DNA from: Escherichia coli | Lineage (GTDB): Bacteria > Pseudomonadota > Gammaproteobacteria > Enterobacterales > Enterobacteriaceae | Assembly: GCF_003334355.1 (NCBI RefSeq) | Contig: NZ_QOWP01000005.1 | Direction: 5' to 3' (one strand) | DNA: 64,000 nucleotides | Part shown: piece by piece, positions 8,236-8,854 of the stretch | Numbering within the stretch: position 1 is the first letter of the stretch | How the letters are laid out: the number at the start of each line of letters is the position of its first letter | Made by a program: the position numbers and the translations under genes | Notes under the pieces: generated by a model | The model's database searches: none | What the model was told of the DNA's origin: nothing | Seen by the model: the letters and a program-made list of their open reading frames with translations, nothing else

Positions 8236-8264
8236 AAAAAAGCACCTTTTTAGGTGCTTTTTTG
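8236..8264 (+). terminator. Rho-independent terminator after cysK
   Basis: aaaaaagcacctttttaggtgcttttttg: hairpin plus T-run. Confidence 0.8.
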
Positions 8265-8596
8265 TGGCCTGCTTCAAACTTTCGCCCCTCCTGGCATTGA
8301 TTCAGCCTGTCGGAACTGGTATTTAACCAGACTAATTATTTTGATGCGCGAAATTAATCGTTACAGGAAAAGCCAAAGCTGAATCGATTTTATGATTTGG
8401 TTCAATTCTTCCTTTAGCGGCATAATGTTTAATGACGTACGAAACGTCAGCGGTCAACACCCGCCAGCAATGGACTGTATTGCGCTCTTCGTGCGTCGCG
8501 TCTGTTAAAAACTGGCGCTAACAATACAGGCTAAAGTCGAACCGCCAGGCTAGACTTTAGTTCCACAACACTAAACCTATAAGTTGGGGAAATACA
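8265..8596 (+). promoter_or_regulatory. ptsH-ptsI-crr upstream regulatory region
   Basis: 332-bp non-coding leader; perfect inverted repeat TGACGT-N5-ACGTCA at 8433-8449 and a CRP-like half-site pair near 8389-8410; ptsH regulation by CRP/Mlc is established knowledge, exact sites are inferred. Confidence 0.4.
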
Positions 8597-8854
8597 ATGT
8601 TCCAGCAAGAAGTTACCATTACCGCTCCGAACGGTCTGCACACCCGCCCTGCTGCCCAGTTTGTAAAAGAAGCTAAGGGCTTCACTTCTGAAATTACTGT
8701 GACTTCCAACGGCAAAAGCGCCAGCGCGAAAAGCCTGTTTAAACTGCAGACTCTGGGCCTGACTCAAGGTACCGTTGTGACTATCTCCGCAGAAGGCGAA
8801 GACGAGCAGAAAGCGGTTGAACATCTGGTTAAACTGATGGCGGAACTCGAGTAA
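8597..8854 (+). CDS. ptsH: Phosphocarrier protein HPr
   Basis: 85 aa; active-site His15 in [10 protein letters not shown]; Ser46 region SASAKSLF. Confidence 0.97.

Follow-up and report, generated by a model that had tools for sequence, protein, structure and literature searches.

The perfect inverted repeat TGACGTACGAAACGTCA upstream of ptsH in Escherichia coli appears to mark the P1 start region of the ptsHI-crr operon and, with a confidence somewhat short of even, is predicted to be transcribed as a 5'-terminal stem-loop on the mRNA that begins at the upstream P1 start, and on that mRNA only. The promoter region itself has long been known; the palindrome adds at most a small twist and ranks as a minor, ordinary feature. 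The window (the whole 64-kb stretch of DNA that was analysed) is a segment of the E. coli chromosome with the gene order zipA-cysZ-cysK-ptsH-ptsI-crr. Its 383-bp cysK-ptsH spacer is identical to that of MG1655 (NC_000913.3 coordinates equal window coordinates plus 2525167) and is retained at 95-100% identity in all 5426 complete E. coli genomes. The repeat, with 6-bp arms in the form TGACGT-N5-ACGTCA, is present exactly as claimed in the first-pass annotation, and the distance from ptsH given there as about 150 bp corresponds to 156 nt between the palindrome centre (8441) and the ATG.

Transcription starts of the operon are listed in the SMRT-Cappable-seq supplement, for which triphosphorylated 5' ends of MG1655 RNA were captured (PMC6131387). 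Comparison of the palindrome with these starts, the check that had been suggested in the first-pass annotation, places it on both P1 starts, inside the ptsH promoter region (Table 1). Starts within 5 bp of each other were merged in that study (PMC6131387), so that 2533600 and 2533607 represent separate clusters, and P1 consists of two overlapping promoters with starts 7 bp apart. Of 11 starts in the neighbourhood, 2 have a purine at the listed position and 7 at the next one; the tabulated coordinates are therefore probably too low by one base, the true P1 starts probably being G8434 and G8441 rather than 8433 and 8440. Since only starts paired with a defined 3' end were tabulated, a start that is missing from one of the sheets need not be unused. 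The majority of ptsH transcripts originate at P0 (451 and 403 reads), and in these the hairpin would be internal. On the upstream P1 transcript the palindrome spans +1 to +17, and on the downstream one about -7 to +10, with the last base of the TTTAAT -10 box (8433) serving as the first base of the palindrome. A consensus promoter scan of the spacer detects no strong sigma-70 match, which suggests that the ptsH spacer promoters lack strong consensus elements.

The P1 start pair, approximately 100 bp 3' of P0, lies in what we take to be the region of P1a and P1b of ptsH. The P0/P1a/P1b arrangement and the "promoter switch" exerted by CRP on the pts operon were reportedly described by Fox et al. 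in 1992 and by Ryu and Garges in 1994. That switch resembles the present case in having two starts a few base pairs apart about 100 bp 3' of P0, with a CRP site that activates one of them and occludes the other. A further likeness is that the upstream start is listed for glucose medium and the downstream start for rich medium (PMC6131387). A paper of 2023 (Sci Adv) claims that ampicillin binds DNA "around P1b".

Table 1. Features of the cysK-ptsH spacer and the start of ptsH (window coordinates)
Feature	Position	Strand	Basis	Details
CRP-like site TGTGG-CCTGCT-TCAAA	8263-8278			8/10 core; centre 8270.5, i.e., -61.5 from the P0 start 8332
Promoter P0	8297-8334	+		TTGATT 8297-8302, 17-bp spacer, TATTTA 8320-8325, start 8332-8334; hexamers conserved
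ptsH-ptsI-crr start 2533499	8332		PMC6131387	M9-glucose sheet; 451 reads
ptsH-ptsI-crr start 2533500	8333		PMC6131387	Rich sheet; 403 reads
Mlc-type operator ATTATTTTGATGCGCGAAATTAA	8335-8357			TT-N9-AA, A/T at +/-11; about +3 to +25 of P0, just 3' of the P0 start
Cra (FruR)-type box GCTGAATCGATTTTAT	8378-8393		sequence	GCTGAATCGATTT nearly invariant in all 79 Enterobacterales loci
CRP-like site TATGA-TTTGGT-TCAAT	8391-8406			7/10 core; centre 8398.5; conserved in Enterobacteriaceae
-10 box CATAAT of the upstream P1 start (8433/8434)	8421-8426	+	sequence	start 7-8 nt 3' of the box
-10 box TTTAAT of the downstream P1 start (8440/8441)	8428-8433	+	sequence	start 7-8 nt 3' of the box
Inverted repeat TGACGTACGAAACGTCA (TGACGT-ACGAA-ACGTCA)	8433-8449	+	sequence	6-bp perfect arms, 5-bp spacer
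Left arm TGACGT	8433-8438	+		first or second base is the upstream P1 start (2533600 = 8433; probably G8434)
ptsH-ptsI-crr start 2533600	8433		PMC6131387	M9-glucose sheet; 74 reads
Spacer/loop ACGAA	8439-8443	+		holds the downstream P1 start 8440/8441 (2533607 = 8440; probably G8441)
ptsH-ptsI-crr start 2533607	8440		PMC6131387	Rich sheet; 225 reads
Right arm ACGTCA	8444-8449	+		base-pairs with the left arm (8433-8438) when the first 20-60 nt of the RNA are folded
Distal partner UUCGUGCGUC	8489-8498	+		pairs with 8434-8443 in the full-length E. coli leader fold
ptsH-ptsI-crr start 2533731	8564		PMC6131387	operon table
ptsH CDS (HPr, 85 aa, 100% identity)	8597-8854	+		ATG at 8597

When the spacer is scanned for the CRP core (TGTGA-N6-TCACA), just two sites reach 7 or more of the 10 matches, 8263-8278 and 8391-8406. 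The centre of the second one is located at -41.5 from start 8440 and at -34.5 from start 8433, which, to judge from the sequence, would be a class II activating position for the former and an occluding position for the latter; with 41.5-42.5 bp between this site and the downstream start, CRP-cAMP should favour that start. According to the proposed explanation, CATAAT would direct the upstream promoter to a start on the first or second base of the palindrome, and TTTAAT would direct the downstream promoter to a start within the palindrome spacer. Given that the upstream start is at the foot of the left arm, the respective mRNA would open with a stem-loop of 5-6 bp, 5'-(U)GACGU-ACGAA-ACGUC(A), that leaves no 5' nucleotide unpaired, whereas the downstream-start mRNA would lack the left arm and have a single-stranded 5' end. 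The upstream start would be the CRP-independent one, with the stem-loop formed only when RNA polymerase uses it. The explanation supposes that the hairpin forms and matters in vivo and that CRP would drive the start switch at these exact bases.

RNA folding predicts a hairpin in the first 20 nt of the upstream-start transcript (-6.4 kcal/mol from U8433, -5.7 kcal/mol from G8434) without an unpaired 5' nucleotide, and this hairpin is the minimum-energy structure for nascent upstream-start transcripts of 20-60 nt; the transcript from 8440 is predicted to fold with its 5' end unpaired. By analogy, a 5' stem-loop would hinder the 5'-end-dependent decay mediated by RppH and RNase E, and start-point choice would thereby also determine how stable the ptsHI-crr message is. 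The extended proposal, that the CRP-dependent switch doubles as a post-transcriptional one, is rather unlikely: without cAMP-CRP (i.e., on glucose) the message would carry a protective 5' stem-loop, and with cAMP-CRP it would start 7 nt downstream, within the loop, and carry none, such that CRP would govern where transcription begins as well as how fast the message decays.

The main alternative, somewhat unlikely in our assessment, is that the symmetry is incidental: the block 8427-8449 would be conserved on account of the second -10 box, the discriminator, the two starts and the initially transcribed sequence, and the repeat would be a product of chance, extended from 5 to 6 bp by a single E. 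coli substitution. As a class, the palindrome is nothing unusual relative to chance. Perfect 6-bp inverted repeats are frequent, with 25 of them having a 5-bp spacer in the window (15.6 expected under uniform composition), 17-31 for each spacer length from 0 to 12, and approximately 330 summed over these lengths; a chance expectation of zero is valid only for the exact 12-base word of the palindrome and is trivial. If the cysK terminator cluster is set aside, the 383-bp cysK-ptsH spacer holds just one 6-bp inverted repeat besides the palindrome, at 8556. Three observations do rise above chance, namely the exact match to mapped starts, arms that many Enterobacteriaceae conserve at a set distance from the -10 box, and two instances of compensatory change in both arms.

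Comparison with relatives bears on both readings. In an alignment of the 400 nt 5' of ptsH from 80 loci that encode HPr at 96-100% identity in different Enterobacterales species, hardly any variation is seen in the Cra box, CATAAT, the Mlc box, the P0 hexamers or the upstream CRP half-sites, and several of these elements stay nearly constant even in Serratia, Yersinia, Hafnia and Rahnella (e.g., CATAAT does not vary among 56 close relatives and hardly varies among 23 distant Enterobacterales). TTTAAT is 70-90% conserved, in Enterobacteriaceae only, and the same taxonomic limit applies to the block GTTTAATGACG..CGAAACGTCA that contains the palindrome and is 60-90% conserved. The only poorly conserved positions of this block, 8438-8439, vary freely, and the approximately 65 nt 3' of the block are variable and have been lost altogether from Enterobacter, Lelliottia and Huaxiibacter. 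The exact TGACGT-N5-ACGTCA is present in 5 of the 80 loci, and the 6-bp form in only 5-6 of the 57 Enterobacteriaceae loci; the usual form is TGACGA-N5-ACGTCA, i.e., 5-bp arms and a 7-nt spacer, with A in place of T at 8438 in other Escherichia (L008, E. albertii), Salmonella and Citrobacter. Pairing of the 4-bp GACG/CGTC core is kept in 35 of the 57 Enterobacteriaceae loci and broken in 22, including those of Kluyvera, Pseudocitrobacter, Buttiauxella and Cedecea, so that pairing has been lost in many lineages that retain the promoter. No palindrome-like repeat is found in Serratia, Yersinia, Hafnia or Rahnella, although CATAAT is kept there. Thus, the hairpin is dispensable. The CGAAA of the spacer is about as conserved as the arms, which points to a constraint that acts in part on sequence and not on pairing alone, presumably through the downstream start and the first transcribed bases. 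The rarity of the 6-bp form, the frequent loss of pairing and the conserved spacer favour incidental symmetry.

Several features of the pairing argue against it. In E. albertii, both arms are changed in a complementary manner (TGATG...CATCA), and in Enterobacter sp. kpr-6 the sequence at the same place is GGCGA-TACTT-TCGCC, again with complementary changes in both arms; a change in K. michiganensis is compatible with a G:U pair. In an anchored alignment, the proposed register has 70.9% of cells paired, compared with 12-54% for slid registers, and double changes are detected in 5 of the 6 pairs. Furthermore, the repeat begins on a transcription start, which by our own estimate is expected of about 2% of placements (383-bp spacer, four start clusters). 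The covariation statistics are weak: the score is 0.146 compared with 0.119 +/- 0.013 in shuffles, 15 of the 500 shuffles score as high, and related sequences can reach such values unconstrained. On four of five measures, 3-18 of the 500 shuffles are as high (85 of the 500 for pair types), which is within reach of relatedness alone. Because relatedness alone can produce covariation of this order, the pairing statistics are suggestive only.

An operator at this site is quite unlikely. Under this reading, a dimeric repressor other than CRP or Mlc would bind TGACG-N7-CGTCA across both P1 starts and block initiation or promoter escape. A dyad over +1 of both starts is a classic repressor position, the arms stand at fixed positions in many Enterobacteriaceae, and the two variable spacer positions are free to change. 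To this extent, the suggestion of a regulator-binding site in the first-pass annotation holds: the palindrome is located within the ptsH promoter region, and related genera conserve its arms, so that it is neither outside the promoters nor unconserved. Nothing in the analysis, however, pointed to a protein bound at the palindrome. The two proteins named there, CRP and Mlc, do not fit it (see below), and other regulators do little better when their consensus sequences are compared with the palindrome by eye. The Cra (FruR) operator consensus is RSTGAAWCSNTHHW; positions 8438-8451 match it at 8 of 14 positions, without the T of TGAA, and it is GCTGAATCGATTTTAT that fits instead, a box that we take to be a Cra site on the strength of that consensus and of what Ryu et al. 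reportedly described in 1995. None of the RbsR/PurR-type half-site (CGAAACG), MetJ, PhoP, ArcA, CusR, GlpR, KdgR, the MarA/SoxS box and EcoKI fits both arms, and with Cra, RbsR/PurR-type, MetJ, PhoP, CusR and other consensus sequences one half-site is fitted at most. The symmetric double changes tell against an operator as well, given that TGATG/CATCA in E. albertii and GGCGA/TCGCC in kpr-6 would damage both half-sites; the E. albertii change fits a base-paired hairpin better than a sequence-specific protein dyad. At the sensitivity of BLAST, no further copy of the element is found in any of the 5426 E. coli genomes. Finally, Ryu and Garges reportedly reproduced the promoter switch in vitro in 1994 with RNA polymerase and CRP alone.

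Very unlikely is the possibility that the palindrome belongs to a larger folded leader, in which 8434-8443 and 8489-8498 would close a 65-nt multi-branch domain in E. coli and the local palindrome would be a folding intermediate. The full-length E. coli leader folds at -51.6 kcal/mol (z = -3.4 compared with shuffles), and its minimum-energy fold uses the distal helix, a 10-bp one that is more stable than the local hairpin once at least 66 nt have been made. Beyond Escherichia, the distal partner shows no conservation, and Enterobacter, Lelliottia and Huaxiibacter, in which the local dyad persists, lack the distal region altogether. In Salmonella and Citrobacter, there is no distal pairing and the local hairpin is the minimum-energy fold, and in most Enterobacteriaceae leaders the local hairpin is found within the full-length minimum-energy fold; most stems in relatives have 4-5 bp and enclose a loop of 7 nt, reaching -2.4 to -4.5 kcal/mol. 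With its partner variable or deleted in relatives, the distal 10-bp helix was rejected as the conserved structure. Other RNA-level roles were considered and rejected as well. A terminator scan picks up the cysK terminator, a weak site at 8316-8330 and nothing else, and the palindrome is followed by GCGGTCAAC, so an intrinsic terminator or attenuator does not apply; the UhpU sRNA pairs inside the ptsH coding sequence (+12 to +26), away from the palindrome. No Rfam covariance model matches 8433-8449 even at an E-value of 10, and a full-text literature search for the palindrome sequence identified no paper and no description of the inverted repeat.

The motif scan that had been suggested to decide between CRP and Mlc, performed here with CRP core matches and the TT-N9-AA rule, fails for both proteins at the palindrome and finds better-conserved candidates elsewhere in the spacer. 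The Mlc/NagC operator is a 23-bp quasi-palindrome with an invariant TT at -6,-5 and AA at +5,+6, and A or T at +/-11 confers Mlc specificity (PMC4288165). No TT-N9-AA register is present over 8433-8449, those of the spacer being centred at 8329, 8346/8347, 8419 and 8562, and the Mlc-type box 8335-8357 is highly conserved in close and distant relatives. The palindrome matches the CRP core at no more than 5 of 10 positions in any overlapping register, a score attained by 7.2% of window positions, and the spacing of its arms (TGACG-N7-CGTCA) does not match that of CRP (TGTGA-N6-TCACA). With its centre at about +8 and 0 from the two P1 starts, it also lacks the activating geometry of CRP (-41.5, -61.5 or further upstream). 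Both half-sites of the CRP-like site 8263-8278 are 100% conserved in close relatives. Thus, even though both proteins regulate ptsH, CRP as an activator confirmed by gSELEX and lacZ fusions (PMC3105977) and Mlc as a repressor of "promoter 0" of ptsHI (PMC2238713), the chance that the palindrome is a binding site for either is negligible, with better sites (8263-8278, 8391-8406 and 8335-8357) that show the canonical spacing to mapped starts. The palindrome shares with the CRP and Mlc operators of pts its dyad symmetry and the intergenic region but matches neither motif, and in view of the negative scans it is neither of the two candidates of the first-pass annotation.

The preferred reading, a P1 start region with a 5'-terminal stem-loop on the upstream-start mRNA, has partial parallels among known systems. 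In E. coli mRNAs of the ompA and papA type, 5'-terminal stem-loops are said to be stabilising, as Emory, Bouvet and Belasco reportedly found in 1992, and the ptsH stem-loop is likewise at, or within one nucleotide of, the 5' end. With 5-6 bp and about -6 kcal/mol, its predicted stem falls short of theirs in length and strength and would be present on only one of several ptsH transcripts; an effect on half-life is proposed by analogy. In pyrC, pyrD and codBA of E. coli and Salmonella, start-site switching decides whether a 5' hairpin is formed. As in the pyrC type, the ptsH P1 starts are a few nucleotides apart and only the longer transcript contains both arms. The pyrC hairpin, however, hides the ribosome-binding site, and the choice of start is set by CTP/GTP pools, whereas at ptsH about 150 nt separate the hairpin from the ribosome-binding site and the choice would depend on CRP-cAMP. 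As the right arm, which ends at 8449, stops 148 nt short of the ATG (8597), the ptsH hairpin cannot mask the ribosome-binding site.

The ptsHI-crr operon encodes general components of the sugar phosphotransferase system, the driver of sugar uptake and of catabolite repression in enteric bacteria, and for 30 years work on the promoters of the operon has centred on CRP, Mlc and Cra. Should the symmetry be incidental, the present analysis amounts to a correct annotation only, namely that the palindrome marks the P1 starts and is not a CRP or Mlc operator. If the choice of the P1 start also decides the formation of the 5' hairpin, a modest post-transcriptional layer would be added to glucose signalling at ptsHI-crr, and the operon would provide a clean example of start-site choice controlling the fate of an mRNA far from the ribosome-binding site.

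The ptsH leader contains a hairpin that ends 35 nt upstream of the ptsH ATG and is better conserved than the palindrome at 8433-8449. Its arms (CTAAAGT/ACTTTAG) are almost invariant across 30 distinct Enterobacterales leaders, an invariance that extends to Yersinia, Serratia, Dickeya and Pectobacterium, whereas the inner part is variable; in Pluralibacter gergoviae (L007 among the HPr-encoding loci aligned), the entire helix is replaced by another helix. An Rfam search with the hairpin returned no match. A transcription start identified by SMRT-Cappable-seq lies directly 3' of the hairpin, 2 nt beyond its end and about 33 nt upstream of the ATG, and could represent a third ptsH promoter. The hairpin is a candidate RNA structure or, alternatively, a candidate DNA dyad at this proximal promoter.

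Features of the cysK-ptsH intergenic region
Feature	Window position	Description
cysK terminator hairpin	8236-8263	
Upstream CRP-like site	8263-8278	TGTGG-N6-TCAAA
ptsH leader hairpin	8530-8562	GGCTAAAGTC...GACTTTAGTTCC
Triphosphate-capped start	8564-8565	MG1655 2533731; operon table, PMC6131387

The start coordinates in the supplementary tables of PMC6131387 (MG1655) appear to be one base too low: among the 11 starts near ptsH, the listed base is a purine in two cases and the next base in seven. In the same data, 21 of the 74 reads that begin at the upstream P1 start (2533600) in M9-glucose terminate at MG1655 2534344 (window 9177), a 3' end labelled "novel TTS" that is located about 280 nt inside ptsI, so that these reads correspond to a ptsH-only transcript.

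The leader immediately downstream of the palindrome differs among the Enterobacterales. Enterobacter, Lelliottia and Huaxiibacter (loci L003, L009, L011, L014, L020, L039 and L053) lack approximately 65 nt of leader that E. coli carries after the palindrome (8453-8516), and in these genera the dyad runs straight into CAGCGCTAACAATACAGGCTAAAG; this absence implies that the corresponding part of the leader is dispensable. Only in E. coli can the 5'-terminal 10 nt of the transcript from the upstream P1 start (8434-8443) pair with UUCGUGCGUC (8489-8498), located 55 nt downstream, and the predicted helix encloses a 65-nt domain. The predicted fold of the full E. coli ptsH leader has a z-score of -3.4 versus shuffled sequences.

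According to a 2023 paper (PMC9995076), ampicillin is said to bind DNA within 12 bp "around P1b" of the ptsH promoter and to compete with CRP; "P1b" is the label used in that paper. Farther upstream, the CRP-like site adjoins the cysK terminator hairpin, and the T-tract of the terminator extends into this site. Given that the two elements abut or overlap, a single short stretch (8236-8278) comprises both the end of cysK and the activator site of the ptsH promoter P0.
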